Positions 4,723-17,803 of a DNA stretch of 64,000 nt are shown here, one piece after another; positions within the stretch are counted from its first letter, which is position 1, and every line of letters starts with the position of its first letter. The notes under the pieces are model-generated. The model was given only the letters and a program-made list of their open reading frames with translations. It did not search any database and had not been told where the DNA came from. This DNA is from a virus (Duplodnaviria; Caudoviricetes), in the IMG/VR virus record IMGVR_UViG_3300028048_000071, positions 68,933 to 132,932 of that record, one strand, 5' to 3'. The position numbers and the translations under genes were made by a program.

Positions 4723-5382
4723 ATGGCTAAGCAAACAATAAATAATCTTGAATCTGCGGCAACTGTTAGAAGCAAGATTAATAGTAACTTTACAGAACTA
4801 TATGACCAAAAAGCTGATAAAAATCACGCATATACAGATTCAAGTTATGGTGCTGCATCAAACGAATTATTTGGTCACGTAAAAATAAATGTTGCTAATG
4901 GCTTAAATGTTAGCGATGGTGTAGTAAGTTTAGCTCTTGCAACGACTACCGGTGCTGGTGCGGTGCAATTAGCTGATTCTCTTACTTCAAATGACCCAAC
5001 AAAAGCATTAAGTGCTGCACAAGGGAAAATTTTAAATGATACTTTAACATCGTTAGACGAAAATACTCCTCCAAAAAATCACGCAGTTGACAATGGTGAT
5101 TATGGACTTGCAACAAGTTCTTTATATGGACATTTAAGAGTTACATCTGGAAATGGATTAACTTTAAACGACGGGACTTTATCACTAAATGCCGCAACTA
5201 CAAGTGCTGCCGGTGCAGTACAATTGGAGGATTCATTAGAATCTCAATCTACTACTAAAGCATTAACTGCTAATATGGGATATTATTTGAATAAACATAA
5301 AGCAGAAGCTTTTAGTGGAACAACAGTGCCAAGTAATAATCTTGGTAGTGATGGAGATATATACTTTTTATTAGAAAATTAA
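4723..5382 (+). CDS. Tail fibre protein with duplicated fibre repeat
   Basis: Two copies of NHA...YG.A....GH...ATT..AGAVQL.DSL.S...KAL. Confidence 0.75.
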   Translation: MAKQTINNLESAATVRSKINSNFTELYDQKADKNHAYTDSSYGAASNELFGHVKINVANGLNVSDGVVSLALATTTGAGAVQLADSLTSNDPTKALSAAQGKILNDTLTSLDENTPPKNHAVDNGDYGLATSSLYGHLRVTSGNGLTLNDGTLSLNAATTSAAGAVQLEDSLESQSTTKALTANMGYYLNKHKAEAFSGTTVPSNNLGSDGDIYFLLEN

Positions 5383-8222: not shown

Positions 8223-9716
8223 ATGGCAAAAAGTTTTTTAGTTGATATTAACTTAAACAAAAATGAATTGCAAAATGCTATTGTTCAAAATTTAGCAACT
8301 AACCCAAGCAATCCAAAGCCAGGTCAAGTATATTTTAATACTACAACAAATAGATTTAGAGTATATACTGGAACTGAATGGGATGAAATGGGTACTGGTG
8401 GTGGAACAGTAACTAGCGTTGATGCTGCTAATACAGATGGGTCATTAACTATTTCTGGTAATCCAATTACTTCATCTGGAACAATAACTGTTGACCACAC
8501 AAATACAATTAGTGCCGTTACAACTTCTGGAATATATCCAATAAAAGTTGATGCAAACGGACATATCACTGAGACTGGAACTGCTTTAGGTAATGTTTCA
8601 ACTACTGCGGCAGGTTTACTTCCAGCATTTAGTTCTGCAAACCAATCATCTACAGCTGTAGCAACAAATGATTATGTTTGGGATGCAACTACAAATAAAT
8701 ATTCAAAATTACCAGCAAACGCATTTAAAGATACTACTTATACAGATGGAACTGCTGGTTATACTTTAAAAGCAAAACAAGATAGTGAAGGAAATCAAAT
8801 TAATACAACTTATGCACCATTAGCAAGTCCAGCATTTACTGGAACTCCAACTGCACCAAAAGCAACTGCTGGTGATAGTAGCGACCAAATCGCAACTACA
8901 TCATTTGTTAGTGAGGCTTTAGGGGCTGTATCTGGTGCAATGCACTTTAAAGGTACTGTTGGTACTGGTGGAACTGCCGGAACTTCTTTACCAACTAGCG
9001 GAGTAACTATTGGAGACACATATAAAGTTGTAACTAAAGGAACTTATGCTGGTCAAGCTGCTGGTGTAGGAGACTTATTTATAGCAACTGCTACTACTCC
9101 AACTTGGGCTTATGTACCATCTGGAGATGACGCTGCTGTAACAAGTATTACTGCTGGTACTGGTTTAACTGGTGGAACAATAACTACTACTGGTACTATT
9201 GCTTTAGCTACAAGTGGTGTTTCTGCTGGTACATATCAAGGTATAACTGTTGATACTTATGGTAGAGTAACATCTGCTCAAGATATGGGTTATACAACAA
9301 ACGAAGGTACTGTAACTTCAGTAGGAATAACTGCGGGTAGCGGTATTTCTGTATCTGGTAGTCCAATAACTACAAGTGGTTCTATTACAGTAGGACATAC
9401 AAATTCAATAACTGCACAATCTACATCTGGAGTATATCCAATCAAAATAGATGCAAATGGACATATCACAGAATATGGTAGTGCTGTAACTATTTTAAAG
9501 AAATATGCTGCTACTATAACAGGAGATGCAAGTAAAACAAGTTTTACTATAACTCATAATTTAGGAAGCAGAGATGTAACAGTTCAAGTATATGATGGTA
9601 CAAGCTATGAAGAAGTAATTGTTGATGTAACAAGAACTAGTACTTCAGTTGTAACTATCGGATTCGCTAGTGCACCTGCAACAGGAGCTACTTATAGAGT
9701 TGTAGTAATCGGCTAA
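8223..9716 (+). CDS. Tail fibre protein
   Basis: Thr/Gly-rich; APLASPAFTGTPTAP; repeated GTVTSV...PIT.SG.I.V.HTN; ITHNLG C-terminus. Confidence 0.8.
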   Translation: MAKSFLVDINLNKNELQNAIVQNLATNPSNPKPGQVYFNTTTNRFRVYTGTEWDEMGTGGGTVTSVDAANTDGSLTISGNPITSSGTITVDHTNTISAVTTSGIYPIKVDANGHITETGTALGNVSTTAAGLLPAFSSANQSSTAVATNDYVWDATTNKYSKLPANAFKDTTYTDGTAGYTLKAKQDSEGNQINTTYAPLASPAFTGTPTAPKATAGDSSDQIATTSFVSEALGAVSGAMHFKGTVGTGGTAGTSLPTSGVTIGDTYKVVTKGTYAGQAAGVGDLFIATATTPTWAYVPSGDDAAVTSITAGTGLTGGTITTTGTIALATSGVSAGTYQGITVDTYGRVTSAQDMGYTTNEGTVTSVGITAGSGISVSGSPITTSGSITVGHTNSITAQSTSGVYPIKIDANGHITEYGSAVTILKKYAATITGDASKTSFTITHNLGSRDVTVQVYDGTSYEEVIVDVTRTSTSVVTIGFASAPATGATYRVVVIG

Positions 9717-13095: not shown

Positions 13096-13117
13096 TGAAT
13101 GAAAGGAGAATAATTTT

Positions 13118-13279
13118 ATGTTAGAAATAATTAAATCATTCTTCTCCCCTGTAGGGGGGGGCGAACAAGCTTCGCTTCACAGAATGGAAATATACAAAGG
13201 AAGGAGGATTTGCGTCAAGAGTATAGTAACTCTTCAAGCAATTCCGACTTCAATAGAAAGAGAGGTGAAGAGTATCTAA
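13118..13279 (+). CDS. Leader peptide 1 (53 aa in the present G8 state); phase-variable
   Basis: AAAGGAG SD at 13102, ATG 13118, MLEIIKSFFSPVGGGEQ...VKSI, TAA 13277; crosses the G8 tract. Confidence 0.8.
   Translation: MLEIIKSFFSPVGGGEQASLHRMEIYKGRRICVKSIVTLQAIPTSIEREVKSI
13154..13161 (+). repeat. Poly-G tract 1 (G8)
   Basis: G homopolymer in an AT-rich genome, inside the leader ORF. Confidence 0.95.
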
Positions 13280-13359
13280 AATCTTCTTATGGAAGATTTG
13301 CAGATGGAAGCAACGCTTCTGTCTTAATCTCTTCATCTTTCGCAAGTGAAAATATCGTA

Positions 13360-13368
13360 GGGGGGGGG
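13360..13368 (+). repeat. Poly-G tract 2 (G9)
   Basis: Direct reading. Confidence 0.95.
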
Positions 13369-13494
13369 CAGCTACGCTCGAATAATTATTCAGCAAGCAG
13401 TCGCTCTTATAAAGGAGGTGAAGGCAATTACGCTAGCTTAATGTCTAGTGATTTTGCCGGAACCGAGACAATGTTAAACCCTGACCGCATAGTC

Positions 13495-13503
13495 GGGGGG
13501 GGG
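13495..13503 (+). repeat. Poly-G tract 3 (G9)
   Basis: Direct reading. Confidence 0.95.
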
Positions 13504-13650
13504 CGAAATCCATTTGGATTCGTCTTCAAAGAAAGGGGGCAAGCCACTATTTAGACTTGCCTCTTATACACGAAATGATTTCTCTTTCAAGAAGGGAGGT
13601 GCAGGCTTAACAGTCTGTACTCCTTTTTATTATGAAGGAGGTGTGTGTTA

Positions 13651-14034
13651 ATGCAAATTAATAAAGACCTTATTATTAGTGGAACTAATATGACTTTAGG
13701 CGATACAGCCTATAAAGATATATATTCAACAACTGAAACCAAGACTAATAAGGTTTGGATTGATGGTCGTACTATATATAGAAAGGTTATTACTGGAAAT
13801 TTATCTCAGGCACAATGGAATCACGGAATAACTTTTGATACTATTGTTTCTATAGAAGGTGTTTTTATAAATACTAATTCTGGTAATACATTTAATATAC
13901 CTAGTACAAGACCTGATTTTCCTGATTATCAAGTTGGTGTATTTGTGAATAATACATTTATAACTTTAGAACGTGCTACTGGTGCTCAACGTGCGGATAT
14001 GAGTTTTTATGTAGTTTTAGAATATGTGAAATAA
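13651..14034 (+). CDS. Variable fibre-tip/receptor-binding cassette 1
   Basis: MQINKDL start; YSTTETKTNKVWIDGRTIYRK fibre C-terminal motif. Confidence 0.75.
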   Translation: MQINKDLIISGTNMTLGDTAYKDIYSTTETKTNKVWIDGRTIYRKVITGNLSQAQWNHGITFDTIVSIEGVFINTNSGNTFNIPSTRPDFPDYQVGVFVNNTFITLERATGAQRADMSFYVVLEYVK

Positions 14035-14063
14035 CACACACAACAGGCTAACAGCCTAACATT

Positions 14064-14471
14064 ATGGCTAAATTTACAATTAATAAAGACTTCTTTGTAG
14101 GTGATACAAATTATTCTTTAGAGGATATTCCTTTTGGAGTAGAACCCGAAGTCCCATCTAATCAAAATTATTTTAAATTTGGGAATATGATGATTTGTTG
14201 GGGTTGGAGAAACGTAACTTTAAACTGGAATGGGAATGGAGCTTATGCTGATTTTAATTTAGCAAACGATGGAACTCCATATAAAGATACTGCATATAGA
14301 ATTGTTGGGAGTTATGCTGGAAGCACAGCTTATTATGCAGGAAACTGGTGCTGGTTTGAAAGCAAAGGGACGACAAGTGCAAGAGTAAATTGCTGGTGTG
14401 AACAAGCTAATAAACCAACATCTATTATTATAGGTTTTATAGCCATTGGAAGATGGCGTGATGCTGAATAA
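14064..14471 (+). CDS. Cassette 2 (gp53-like fibre C-terminal domain)
   Basis: MAKFTINKDF start; YFKFGNMMICWG...FIAIGRW. Confidence 0.75.
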   Translation: MAKFTINKDFFVGDTNYSLEDIPFGVEPEVPSNQNYFKFGNMMICWGWRNVTLNWNGNGAYADFNLANDGTPYKDTAYRIVGSYAGSTAYYAGNWCWFESKGTTSARVNCWCEQANKPTSIIIGFIAIGRWRDAE

Positions 14472-14507
14472 AAACATTTCGTGATGAGCAAGCCTTTTGG
14501 CGAACTT

Positions 14508-14918
14508 ATGAAGATTAATAAAGATTTAATCGTAGAGGGTACAAATCATACATTAGAAGATATACCTTTTGATATTGATTTATCTGATGTGTATTCTACA
14601 AATGAAACAAAAACAAATAAGGTTTGGATAGATAACAGACCTATATATAGAAGAGTCGTTACCGGTACAGTTACCGCTGCAGGTCAAGGACAAACTGTAA
14701 CCACTATAAGTAATATAAGACAAATCTTGACTATAAGAGGAGTTATGTATTCTAATTATGGTCAATGGTGGAATATTCCTAATTATCACGGAGAAGCAGG
14801 ATATGTAAATTCCATATACTGCGATGCAAATGGAAGAGTCAATTTAGGAGTTGGGAACTTTTATAGTGCCGGTAAACCTTTTATAATTATTTTAGAGTAT
14901 ACAAAATCTACTGACTAA
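14508..14918 (+). CDS. Cassette 3 (paralogue of cassette 1)
   Basis: MKINKDL start chosen by paralogy; YSTNETKTNKVWIDNRPIYRR...LEYTK. Confidence 0.75.
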   Translation: MKINKDLIVEGTNHTLEDIPFDIDLSDVYSTNETKTNKVWIDNRPIYRRVVTGTVTAAGQGQTVTTISNIRQILTIRGVMYSNYGQWWNIPNYHGEAGYVNSIYCDANGRVNLGVGNFYSAGKPFIIILEYTKSTD

Positions 14919-14954
14919 CATTGTCTGAACGGCAAAAAAAATAATGCCGATTCT

Positions 14955-15377
14955 ATGAAAATAAACAAAGACTTAATTATTAGTGATACAAATTATACTT
15001 TAGGAGATGTTGCTGATTTTATATCAAATAAAATAGAAATTAAAGAGCTTGCTTCTACAACAGGAAGTGGCGAAAACATTACAATAGATTTGACCGATAG
15101 TTATAAAAATTATGACTTTTTATTAGTTCAATGGAGTCCATATTCTTTATATGGGAATATTGATTTTTATATTATAGATACTGCTACAATTTTATCTACA
15201 CAATATGGAAATTATCCTTATGAAACCGGACACCTTCAAACAACATCAGTATGGTCAAATGTCGTATTTGGCTTTTCATCAACAACTAGATTTATAGCTA
15301 AATGTGCAAATACAGGAACTTGGGGAAAAGGTTCTTTTAAAATAATTTCTATTAAAGGAATAAAATTACCTCACTAA
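14955..15377 (+). CDS. Cassette 4
   Basis: MKINKDL start; IDLTDSYKNYDFL...IKGIK. Confidence 0.7.
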   Translation: MKINKDLIISDTNYTLGDVADFISNKIEIKELASTTGSGENITIDLTDSYKNYDFLLVQWSPYSLYGNIDFYIIDTATILSTQYGNYPYETGHLQTTSVWSNVVFGFSSTTRFIAKCANTGTWGKGSFKIISIKGIKLPH

Positions 15378-15422
15378 TCACATAATAGAGCGACCGCTCG
15401 TAAATGAGCAAAAGCGAATTAA

Positions 15423-15800
15423 ATGATTATAAACACAGATTTAATCTACCCTATCGGTAGTATATATTTAAGCGTCAACGCAACCAATCCGTCAAAGTAT
15501 TTTGGCGGAGCTTGGGAGCAAATTACATCAGACGCATATTTAAAGATAGTAACTCAAAATGCTGGTTCTTTAGGTGGAACCAGTGTAGACCACAAGATAC
15601 CTATTGAAAGTATGCCTAGTCACGACCACGGTGTGTACGGAGCATTAACTGGAGAAAATAAACCTATTACCAATACTGGTAATGATTGGGGAGTTAATAC
15701 AACACACGGATGGACTACAAATGCCATTTCAAAGACTGGCGGTGGACAGGCTTACTATCCTTATTACTATGGCGTTTATGTTTGGAAAAGAACTGCTTAA
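15423..15800 (+). CDS. Cassette 5 (YPxGSIY...WKRTA family)
   Basis: YPIGSIYLSVNATNPS...MPSHDH...VYVWKRTA. Confidence 0.8.
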   Translation: MIINTDLIYPIGSIYLSVNATNPSKYFGGAWEQITSDAYLKIVTQNAGSLGGTSVDHKIPIESMPSHDHGVYGALTGENKPITNTGNDWGVNTTHGWTTNAISKTGGGQAYYPYYYGVYVWKRTA

Positions 15801-15843
15801 ATATACTCTCTTATGATGTTTTGAAGATTTAGATACAAATCTT

Positions 15844-16233
15844 ATGATTATAAATACAAATATGTTGTTAGCAGCCTATCCTGTAGGTTCGCTATATTTA
15901 ACAACAAATGAAATAAACCCAGGAACCTTATTTGGTGGAACCTGGGAAAAATTGACTGGGGATGCTTATCTTAAAATAGTGACAAGTAATCCTGGTCAAT
16001 ATGATGGTACGTCAGACCAACATAAAATACCTATCAATAGTATGCCTTCTCACAGACACGGTAATAGAGTTACTTTAAATATGTCTCAAGGTGCTGGTCA
16101 AGATAGAAGCCTTGTAGTTGGTGGAGGTCAAGTATGGAATACTGCGGACAATTATCAAAATCAATTTGTTGGTGGTGGACAACCTTATTATCCATATTAT
16201 TATGGTATTTATGTTTGGAGACGTACAGCATAA
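15844..16233 (+). CDS. Cassette 6 (YPxGS...WRRTA family); predicted ON in this genotype
   Basis: YPVGSLYL...MPSHRH...IYVWRRTA. Confidence 0.8.
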   Translation: MIINTNMLLAAYPVGSLYLTTNEINPGTLFGGTWEKLTGDAYLKIVTSNPGQYDGTSDQHKIPINSMPSHRHGNRVTLNMSQGAGQDRSLVVGGGQVWNTADNYQNQFVGGGQPYYPYYYGIYVWRRTA

Positions 16234-16261
16234 TCGGAATTGCTTAATGCAATAAAACTTT

Positions 16262-16435
16262 ATGAAAAATATTTTATTAAATAAAATCCTTCACATCGGG
16301 GGGGGGCAGAAATGTCTGCTCTTCACAAGAAAGGAGGGTTGGCTATTATTTTGTAACGTCAACTCTTCAAGGAATGGAGGTGGCAGACATTTAATATCTG
16401 CTATCTCTTGTGGAGGTGTAATCTTATGCAAATAA
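16262..16435 (+). CDS. Leader peptide 2 (57 aa in the present G9 state); phase-variable
   Basis: ATG 16262, MKNILLNKILHIGGGQK..., TAA 16433 overlapping the start of cassette 7; no SD of its own. Confidence 0.75.
   Translation: MKNILLNKILHIGGGQKCLLFTRKEGWLLFCNVNSSRNGGGRHLISAISCGGVILCK
16298..16306 (+). repeat. Poly-G tract 4 (G9)
   Basis: Direct reading. Confidence 0.95.
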
Positions 16436-16818
16436 ACGTAGATTTAATATATCCTATAGGTTCTTTATATTTAACAACGTCTACTGTATCACCAGCAGTT
16501 TTGTTTGGTGGTACTTGGGAACGCATTAAAGGTAGATGTATTGTAGGTGTAGACGAAAATGACACCGACTTTAATACTGTTAGTAAAACCGGCGGTGAAA
16601 AAACACATACATTGACTGTGGATGAAATGCCAGCACACAATCACAATATTCAAGGTGCGATGAATGGTGCTTCTGGAAGTAGTTGGTGTGTTGCTTTAAA
16701 TAGTGATAGAAGCGTAAACTGGTCTATCACTAATGGGTCACAAAATAAAGGTGGTGGACAAGCACATAACAATCTACAACCTTATTACACTGCTTATATA
16801 TGGCGAAGAACCGCATAA
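16426..16818 (+). CDS. Cassette 7
   Basis: GGAGG SD, MQINVDLIYPIGSLY...WRRTA. Confidence 0.8.
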   Translation: MQINVDLIYPIGSLYLTTSTVSPAVLFGGTWERIKGRCIVGVDENDTDFNTVSKTGGEKTHTLTVDEMPAHNHNIQGAMNGASGSSWCVALNSDRSVNWSITNGSQNKGGGQAHNNLQPYYTAYIWRRTA

Positions 16819-16849
16819 GATTACTTAGATATTAAATTGTCGAATAATT

Positions 16850-17227
16850 ATGAAAATAAACTTAGATTTTATATATCCTGTTGGAAGTATTTATATGAGT
16901 GTTAATGCTACAAATCCAGGAATTTTATTTGGAGGAACTTGGACTCAATTAAAAGATAGGTTCTTACTTGGTGCTGGAAATACATATTCCGCTGGAGATA
17001 CTGGTGGAGAGGCAACTCATACGTTAACTTATAATGAAATGCCTCAACATAGTCACACATTGTATAATGAAAATGCAAGTGGATGGACTTTAAGTAAAGC
17101 ATCTTTAAAAACAGGAACAAATAAAGGATATTCTGGTAATATCCAAATTGGAGATGCTGGAGGTAATCAAGCACATAATAATATGCCTCCATATCTAGTA
17201 GTCTATATGTGGAAAAGAACTGCATAA
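16850..17227 (+). CDS. Cassette 8
   Basis: MKINLDFIYPVGSIY...PPYLVVYMWKRTA. Confidence 0.8.
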   Translation: MKINLDFIYPVGSIYMSVNATNPGILFGGTWTQLKDRFLLGAGNTYSAGDTGGEATHTLTYNEMPQHSHTLYNENASGWTLSKASLKTGTNKGYSGNIQIGDAGGNQAHNNMPPYLVVYMWKRTA

Positions 17228-17273
17228 ATTATTTTGACAAAAAGAGTTGACACTAAAATAATAGTGTTATAAT

Positions 17274-17702
17274 ATGAAAATAAATGAAGATTTAATAATT
17301 AATGGAACGGATTTAAATTTAAATGATATAGTACAAAAAATATCGGCACTTGAAAAATATCAAGTAGAATATAATGCTGATTCAATTACTTTGACATTTA
17401 CAAATAAATATCCTTGTATAGCAATTACATATATGTCTCACGCAGGATGGGGATTTGGAGGAAATGAATGGATTTGGAATGCTGATTTAACTAATTCTGT
17501 TCATTTAGGTTATACTAAAGCCTATGTTAATGGTAATGACTTATTATCAAGATTTATGAGTTCTGTGTCAATTAACTATTGTCCAACTGCGGGAGTAGAA
17601 CATACAACTGTAAGAACTACAACCAAGGGTAACTCTGGTAATAGCAATGGACAATCAGTATGTGTTATTTGTTTACCATTAATAACTAATTCAAAAGAAT
17701 AA
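17274..17702 (+). CDS. Cassette 9
   Basis: MKINEDL start; unrelated C-terminal domain. Confidence 0.7.
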   Translation: MKINEDLIINGTDLNLNDIVQKISALEKYQVEYNADSITLTFTNKYPCIAITYMSHAGWGFGGNEWIWNADLTNSVHLGYTKAYVNGNDLLSRFMSSVSINYCPTAGVEHTTVRTTTKGNSGNSNGQSVCVICLPLITNSKE

Positions 17703-17723: not shown

Positions 17724-17769
17724 GAAAGGGGAATAACTTAACTAAAATTTTTGTTATTTCCTTTTTTTT
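17724..17769 (+). terminator. Intrinsic terminator closing the tail operon
   Basis: aaggggaataac...gttatttccttt followed by a T run. Confidence 0.7.
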
Positions 17770-17774
17770 ACCGC

Positions 17775-17803
17775 TTGACATTATCTTCTTTTTGTGCTAT
17801 AAT
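17775..17803 (+). promoter_or_regulatory. SigmaA-type promoter
   Basis: TTGACA-N17-TATAAT with extended TG. Confidence 0.85.

Follow-up and report, generated by a model that had tools for sequence, protein, structure and literature searches.

The 64,000-nucleotide window analysed here is the second half of a single virus contig (IMG/VR record IMGVR_UViG_3300028048_000071; 132,932 base pairs (bp), 28.5% G+C) and contains an array of nine small genes, the cassettes c1 to c9, behind a tail-fibre gene. The order in the window is a tail-fibre gene of 744 amino acids (aa), a leader 1 of 555 nucleotides (nt), the cassettes c1-c6, a leader 2 and the cassettes c7-c9, with the array ending at position 17702. 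Segments of the two leaders are complementary, in nested order, to the spacers in front of the downstream genes, and here it is proposed that slippage of simple repeats sets the reading frame of the leader, that translation termination opens one unit of the leader, and that long-range pairing then equips one cassette with a composite ribosome-binding site, with no recombinase taking part; reading the sequence in this way is judged moderately probable. That this arrangement represents a recombinase-free, heritable and reversible selector, where each repeat is a three-way switch, the banks are chained, four repeats address nine fibre tips, and several metagenomic phage lineages use it with five kinds of repeat, is regarded as an evenly balanced proposition.

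The preliminary description of this locus reported long-range reverse-complement matches between leader 1 and the spacers, and all ten arm pairs that it listed are present, including two one-base bulges and one U:G pair. The longest exact Watson-Crick matches of the six spacers to leader 1 are 10, 9, 11, 8, 9 and 12 nt long, which is beyond chance when compared with 400 random window segments of the same size (Fisher p = 2e-5). The positions of the best matches in leader 1 follow the order 13641 > 13569 > 13466 > 13400 > 13272 > 13236, a strictly nested arrangement with a chance of 1 in 720, as had been claimed for these helices. The statistics rest on windowed duplex scans and exact-match tests. 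When the duplex energy of each spacer was scanned along all 64 kilobases (kb) of the window, the cognate leader was the global best for 4/8 spacers, and for the other 4/8 it was among the six best-scoring windows listed. Similarly, in the unit-by-spacer matrix of the window, the cognate pair was the row maximum in 7/8 rows. Two further nested pairings were found for leader 2, which match the c7/c8 and c8/c9 spacers. A whole-leader RNAduplex comparison with shuffled controls, which allowed very large loops, gave weak z-scores. Single-segment Smith-Waterman alignment with G:U allowed gave p ~0.005-0.4 per spacer and has little power in AT-rich sequence. With E values of up to 1, Rfam yielded four matches, which all fell far short of their gathering scores. 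As a separate observation, two non-cognate cross-bank pairs (13410-13480/16816-16849 and 16330-16372/14916-14954) had matrix scores of 28 and 27, equal to cognate ones, which may represent cross-talk between the banks or chance.

Related loci, designated here by L numbers, were retrieved via the fibre protein (92-55% identity), and more distant ones via an alignment of the Gp10_C domain. The same architecture is present in L006 and L001, and at least five further phage lineages have the same nested architecture with unrelated helix sequences. In L004, which contains seven cassettes, exact matches of 10-14 nt to the leader were found for 6/6 spacers, again strictly nested (Fisher p 3e-9), and in its matrix the best score belongs to the cognate pair in 6/6 rows and 6/6 columns. 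L009 (whose fibre has 55% identity), L014, L015 and L016 have the same design with unrelated arm sequences, and L015 and L016 carry different fibres; the bank of L015 is minimal and consists of one repeat and three cassettes. In L009 and L016, as in the window, the leader open reading frame (ORF) of a second bank lacks a Shine-Dalgarno (SD) motif, and the spacer in front of this ORF is complementary to the first unit of bank 1. As to covariation in homologous loci, which the preliminary description had looked to, compensatory changes occur in three helices: AGGCT/AGCCT of the c2 helix becomes TGGCTAT/ATAGCCG in L001, a C:G pair of the window in the c6-type helix becomes U:A in L004, and a C:G pair of the c8-type helix becomes U:A in L015. 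The local hairpin at 13219-13236 also covaries, from AAGAGT/ACTCTT to AAGGT/ACCTT in L006/L008. A BLAST search against deposited phage genomes returned only short matches to cassette domains and no related locus.

These comparisons bear on the simplest alternative, namely that the matches arose by chance or were left behind by duplications in AT-rich non-coding DNA and have no function, which is considered scarcely credible. In its favour, two of the seven matches do not reach significance by themselves, and 8-9-mers are common in AT-rich sequence; however, the combined p values of 1e-5 to 1e-9 and the perfect nesting recur in several loci, and the architecture has been kept while the arms were replaced, both in lineages whose fibre identity is as low as 55% and in phages that carry other fibres. 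The different arm sequences also rule out that the related loci are recent recombinants sharing one leader-spacer block.

The geometry of SD motifs, arms and start codons is shared among these loci. Only c1 and c7 carry their own SD, and the other seven cassettes and the leader-2 ORF are without one: GGAG or GAGG at -20 to -4 was found for 0/8 internal starts of the window (seven cassettes and the leader-2 ORF) and 0/6 in L004, compared with 57% of the ORFs in the genome. The leaders contain one SD-like motif per output. The SD is followed by its arm after a gap of 2-6 nt, and the complement of the arm precedes the AUG mostly by 6-10 nt (outlying units have 3 to 17). Further 3' in the unit, a second arm is complementary to the beginning of that spacer, and in places also to the stop codon before it. 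If the plus-strand RNA folds via these arms, the SD and the AUG come to lie at one end of the helix, 9-14 unpaired nt apart. In minimum free energy (MFE) cofolds, the distal helix is intermolecular in 18/18 units.

Based on this geometry, the complementarities probably act as cis-acting long-range helices within one polycistronic mRNA. In the off state, the SD of a unit would be paired to a pyrimidine anti-SD within a local hairpin and thereby masked, and the distal arm would pair with the start of one cassette spacer, tethering this spacer to the leader. A ribosome terminating in or near the hairpin loop would open that unit alone, after which the tethered spacer could pair with the freed SD-proximal arm and bring its AUG to the SD of the leader, resulting in a composite ribosome-binding site for a cassette that lacks its own SD. 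Pairing in vivo, donation of the SD and the production of one cassette at a time are what the sequence would lead us to infer.

The same helices could also be functional RNA elements that do not donate an SD, insulating against read-through reinitiation, masking the starts of c1 and c7, or serving as RNase III processing or stability stems, with the cassettes otherwise translated weakly or all together; this possibility is considered unlikely. It agrees with the position of the most robust helix of each unit, which is found at the start of the spacer, taking in the stop codon before it in places, rather than at the AUG. The initiation region of c1, which contains an anti-SD/SD hairpin at 13620-40, also has the arm 13641-50 between the SD and the ATG of c1, so its helix should close and repress the c1 start. 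Furthermore, the combined arms form imperfect duplexes of 20-30 bp, which would be of the kind that RNase III cuts, such as the stalks flanking the 16S and 23S rRNA. However, helices without SD donation leave unexplained that almost all units in every lineage have their SD 2-6 nt ahead of an arm, that internal cassettes never have an SD, and that off-frame stops track the SDs of the units, as described below. The composite ribosome-binding site is the reading followed here.

The ORF of leader 1 starts at ATG 13118 with its own SD AAAGGAGA. In the window, it is split into 13118-13279, 13210-13554 and 13514-13651 by polyG tracts of lengths 8/9/9, and the last frame ends in TAATG on the start of c1. 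In L006, L001 and L004, the whole leader is a single open frame of 148-185 codons with its own SD and ATG, ending in TAATG or TAGTG on the first cassette, and the remaining two frames hold 9-18 stops. The frame of leader 1 in the window is broken solely because polyG tract 1 is G8 instead of G9 and polyG tract 3 is G9 instead of G8. G-runs of >=7 occur just four times in the 133-kb genome, each time as a leader tract, and C-runs are absent. Tract length is polymorphic between assemblies, with tract 3 being G8, G9 and G10 in L002, L004 and L003, which have near-identical leaders. In other lineages, (CAAT)8-13, (ATAC)14-15, (AAGC)8 or (AC)9 is found at the equivalent position. Repeat units of 1, 2 and 4 nt are thus represented, none with a length divisible by 3, and they are located inside leader ORFs with their own SD and ATG. 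Nearly every repeat examined is followed by two SD units and then by the next repeat or a coupled cassette; in L014, the SD of the second unit behind the first repeat is degenerate, and no partner could be clearly assigned to this unit. The second switch in the L014 leader is (AC)9 (4996-5013) and the first is (CAAT)13, thus one leader can mix repeat types.

A frame rule was read off in L006, L001, L004, L009, L014, L015, L016 and leader 2 of the window, and for leader 1 of the window it was deduced from L006; frames are numbered relative to the frame that reaches the cassette. In frame +2, the first stop is 12-21 nt past the first SD, and in frame +1 it is 13-25 nt past the second SD, where it is often a UAA within the hairpin loop of that unit; loop stops include the off-frame TAA 13439 in the local hairpin of the c4 unit and TAA 13608 in that of the c2 unit. 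Frame +1 is open for 23-37 codons up to the second unit, despite the frequent stops in such sequence. Frame 0 reads on to the next repeat or into the coupled cassette. Under the proposed mechanism, each leader would be a translated ORF with a slippage-prone simple repeat and two units behind each repeat, whose length would fix the reading frame. One frame would continue to the next repeat or, through a stop/start overlap, to the first cassette, and each of the two other frames would stop 12-25 nt past the SD of one unit, often in the hairpin loop, such that one repeat would give three outputs. The first unit of bank 1 would feed the SD-less leader ORF of bank 2. The current frame of the window leader ORF stops at TAA 13277-79, within the 5' arm of the c6 unit. 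The predicted states of the assemblies are c6 for the window, c1 for L006, L001 and L004, c2 for L002, c3 for L003 and L015, and bank 2 for L016.

The choice could alternatively be made by the ribosome itself, through frameshifting or hopping at the polyG tracts or at the helices, in which case it would be made per mRNA, would not be inherited, and could give leader-cassette fusions. GGG GGG GGG is slippery and has SD-like sequence on both sides, SD-stimulated frameshifting is established for dnaX and prfB, and the helix geometry sets the take-off and landing sides side by side. However, (CAAT)13, (ATAC)14-15, (AAGC)8 and (AC)9 at the same position are classic DNA-slippage repeats which cannot be ribosomal slippery sites, the repeat length varies between assemblies at the DNA level, and each cassette has its own ATG and M-x-I-N-x-D motif, all of which make such recoding quite improbable.

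Another possibility is that the inverted repeats are DNA recombination sites which shuffle the cassettes by inversion or deletion, as in shufflons or the Mu G segment. Inverted repeats around tail-fibre cassettes are the usual setting of an invertase, and the genome has one tyrosine recombinase gene. However, the arm pairs all differ in sequence and share no common core that a recombinase would need, and an inversion between arms would turn the cassettes antisense without altering the flanks that hold the SD and ATG, whereas all cassettes have the same orientation in every locus looked at. No serine invertase was found (the genome has no match to resolvase/invertase families), and the sole tyrosine recombinase is 76 kb away. 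Recombination at these arms is therefore very improbable, and both the inversion and the chance readings are effectively excluded. Since the arms adjoin SD motifs, stops and AUGs in a geometry that is joined only by folding of the plus-strand RNA, the helices fit RNA and not recombination sites. This earlier assignment to RNA stands on these grounds, and its additional argument from G-U pairs and bulges does not, because the interior mismatches are 5 of the G:U type and 6 of the A:C type and give no evidence on the strand.

This lack of strand evidence is one of several points that weigh against the composite-site mechanism. For about half of the units, the MFE cofold puts the SD and the SD-proximal arm in a local leader hairpin with the downstream pyrimidine anti-SD; with this hairpin favoured, the composite-site state is not the predicted ground state. 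In units whose SD-proximal arm is partly palindromic, of which there are several, the complementarity between leader and spacer can hardly be separated from two similar hairpins. The 8-mer at 13400-07 (p ~0.26) and the 9-mer core of 13272-86 (p ~0.25) are individually non-significant and count only via their position and conservation. The former belongs to the c5 unit, the weakest one with 8 bp, which has no clear SD besides the polyG tract; polyG tract 2 probably doubles as its SD. Homopolymer sequencing error could explain part of the differences in polyG length between metagenome assemblies, and the tetranucleotide repeats argue for genuine slippage loci. Finally, exclusive expression would depend on downstream units staying off while they are untranslated, which we infer from the arrangement of the units.

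Parts of this arrangement have counterparts in known systems. In the RNA phage MS2, translating ribosomes open the Min Jou long-distance interaction, which controls access to a start site, and ribosomes that end at off-frame stops reinitiate at the nearby start of the lysis gene. Long-distance pairing that gates a start, and off-frame termination followed by nearby reinitiation, are thus features in common; however, the pairing in MS2 represses, with the start codon in cis beside the stop, and there is no repeat switch, SD donation or array of alternatives. As in Dscam, to which the preliminary description compared the docking-site and selector logic, long-range RNA pairing would join an upstream element to one of many downstream cassettes. 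This likeness proved loose, since Dscam has a single docking site contested by selectors and acts on splicing, whereas here each cassette has its own SD unit, no single docking site is contested, and all helices can coexist; the choice seems to stem from the reading frame of the repeat-interrupted leader ORF and not from competition between selectors. The Mu Gin/G segment, P1 Cin, shufflons and diversity-generating retroelements also provide alternative receptor-binding tips from one locus. In these, an invertase or reverse transcriptase rearranges or rewrites the DNA, whereas there is no such enzyme at the present locus and only the repeat length changes.

Short-range split ribosome-binding sites are established for genes 38 and 25 of phage T4, with effective spacings of 5 and 11 nt (PMC3014915). 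There, as proposed here with 9-14 unpaired nt, a helix in the RNA that separates SD and AUG shortens their spacing to a working distance. However, the T4 helix is a local hairpin of 22-27 nt, whereas the present locus would loop out 0.4-3 kb that hold whole genes, and would nest several such sites on one leader, whose use is apparently switched. As for the repeats, polyG tracts in receptor-binding genes of Campylobacter phages have been reported (Sorensen 2021, as cited in PMC12823448), and contingency loci have been described in phages T2/T4 (bioRxiv 10.1101/2025.10.21.683753). These share with the present locus a slippage-prone repeat within an ORF, a reversible frame shift and phenotypic variants. 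The known cases toggle the repeat-bearing gene itself, whereas here the repeat belongs to a leader ORF with a product of no recognisable family, and all three frames are apparently used, each sending ribosomes to another output gene. In the literature, on/off repeat switches of phages and the T4 split sites were found, and no description of a repeat-gated leader ORF combined with the assembly of ribosome-binding sites over kilobases.

If the proposed mechanism is true, it would be a new prokaryotic way to choose among alternative genes, acting at translation initiation via ribosome-binding sites assembled across kilobases of mRNA, with the choice programmed by DNA repeat slippage without a recombinase or reverse transcriptase. 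Phase variation would be widened from on/off to a three-way, cascadable switch, which would also provide a concrete mechanism for host-range bet-hedging in uncultivated metagenomic phages. The repeat length of the leader would then predict the expressed tip, and annotation pipelines would miss which tip this is. The rules can be read from the sequence (SD, arm, off-frame stop and complementary spacer) and the model can be tested with reporters; such a compact multi-output genetic switch may also be reusable.

Table 1. Positions of the tail-fibre gene, leaders, repeats, units, cassettes and spacers in the window.
Feature	Position	Strand	Details
Tail-fibre gene, 744 aa	10861-13095	+	ORF; CBM_5_12 Pfam match; relatives 55-92% identity; directly 5' of the array
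Leader 1	13096-13650	+	555 nt; one continuous ORF in L006, L001 and L004
PolyG tract 1	13154-13161	+	G8 in window; G9 in L006/L001/L010; G11 in L008
Unit for leader-2 ORF	13198-13250	+	SD GGAAGGAGGA 13199-13208; local hairpin 13219-13236; arm 13236-13247, 12-bp exact complement of 16234-16245
Unit for c6	13257-13368	+	SD GAGAGGTG 13260-67; 5' arm 13272-13286; arm copy 13322-35; 3' arm 13349-13365, entering polyG tract 2
PolyG tract 2	13360-13368	+	G9; homologous G9-AGCTACGCTC module in L004
Arm of c5 unit	13400-13407	+	Complement of 15387-15394; kept in L001 and L006
Unit for c4	13410-13480	+	SD GGAGGTG 13414-20; arms 13423-30, 13452-59, 13466-76
PolyG tract 3	13495-13503	+	G9 in window; G8 in L006/L010; G11 in L001
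Unit for c3	13530-13589	+	SD-like GGGGG 13535-39; arms 13553-61, 13569-77
Unit for c2 and c1 initiation region	13590-13650	+	SD GGGAGGTG; arms 13603-07, 13612-18
Cassette c1	13651-14034	+	
c1/c2 spacer	14032-14063	+	Pairs with 13641-50, 13612-18, 13603-07
Cassette c2	14064-14471	+	
c2/c3 spacer	14469-14507	+	Pairs with 13553-81
Cassette c3	14508-14918	+	
c3/c4 spacer	14916-14954	+	Pairs with 13466-76, 13452-59, 13423-30
Cassette c4	14955-15377	+	
c4/c5 spacer	15375-15422	+	Pairs with 13400-07
Cassette c5	15423-15800	+	Gp10_C domain
c5/c6 spacer	15798-15843	+	15806-22 with 13349-65; 15823-36 with 13272-86
Cassette c6	15844-16233	+	Gp10_C domain
Spacer before leader-2 ORF	16231-16261	+	16234-45 with 13236-47
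Leader 2	16262-16425	+	ORF 16262-16435, without own SD
PolyG tract 4 (leader 2)	16298-16306	+	G9
Leader-2 c9 unit	SD 16333; arms 16343-52, 16358-67	+	
Leader-2 c8 unit	SD 16376; arm 16386-16400	+	
c7 SD in leader 2	16412	+	
Cassette c7	16426-16818	+	Gp10_C domain
c7/c8 spacer	16816-16849	+	16826-16841 pairs with leader 2 16386-16400
Cassette c8	16850-17227	+	Gp10_C domain
c8/c9 spacer	17225-17273	+	17242-17264 pairs with leader 2 16343-16367
Cassette c9	17274-17702	+	

The products of c1-c6 have 125-140 aa each, and the motif M-x-I-N-x-D at the N-terminus, present in all nine, is the sole common feature of the c1-c9 proteins. The Gp10_C domain, assigned to four of the cassettes (Table 1), occurs in PHROG families at the C-terminal end of long tail-fibre proteins; c1-c4 and c9 had no family match. 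From these features, the nine cassettes are read as putative interchangeable, stand-alone fibre-tip proteins. The fibre protein itself has the C-terminal motif SYLFKAN, which is kept in the relatives. Downstream of c9, a hairpin followed by a T8 run (~17726-17769) was seen by eye, and behind it a new operon is marked by a perfect match to a sigma-70-type promoter (17775-17803). The c8/c9 spacer also contains promoter-like matches, TTGACA-17-AATAAT and TTGACA-17-TAATAT (17234-17275), over the arms that pair with leader 2; these are kept in L001 and are possibly an internal promoter or a coincidence.

Regarding the leaders, the c6 arm is present twice in leader 1 of the window, as GTATCTAAAATCTTC at 13272-13286 and TTAATCTCTTC at 13322-13335, and the stretch between both copies folds as a local hairpin that mimics the spacer; in L001 and L006, a deletion of ~45 nt fuses the two copies. 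A TAG or TGA in one and the same off-frame is found directly 5' of each leader-1 polyG tract (13151-13153, 13357-13359 and 13489-13491; gTAGGGGGGGG), as well as in L004 and L006, and there is none at the leader-2 tract. The hairpin of the c2 unit (13598-13630), followed by CCTTTTTATT, was scored as terminator-like by the scan; an attenuation role as intrinsic terminator was considered and set aside as doubtful, the U-run being absent in L004. Likewise, a function of the leader peptide as a protein was rejected, since it has no PHROG family and its low-complexity sequence is dictated by the SD and arm motifs. Outside the window, ~23 A-runs of 7-9 nt are packed within 1.6 kb at G000:C1:27450-29083, with nothing comparable elsewhere in the genome.

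Among the relatives, in-frame TGA codons were found at conserved Trp positions of the cassettes in L009 (12537-14923) and L014 (5136-6849). An example from L009 is KFWLDGKPIYRK, compared with NKVWIDGRTIYRK, and in the cassettes of these relatives KF(TGA)LDGKPIYRK likewise corresponds to NKVWIDGRTIYRK. The phages of L009 and L014 apparently read TGA as Trp (code 4), unlike that of the window. In L001, a relic of the 3' end of a window-type c6 (8688-8745, ending ..YVWRRTA stop) is located behind a different c6 cassette, with the docking sequence still following; cassettes are apparently exchanged without loss of the spacer.

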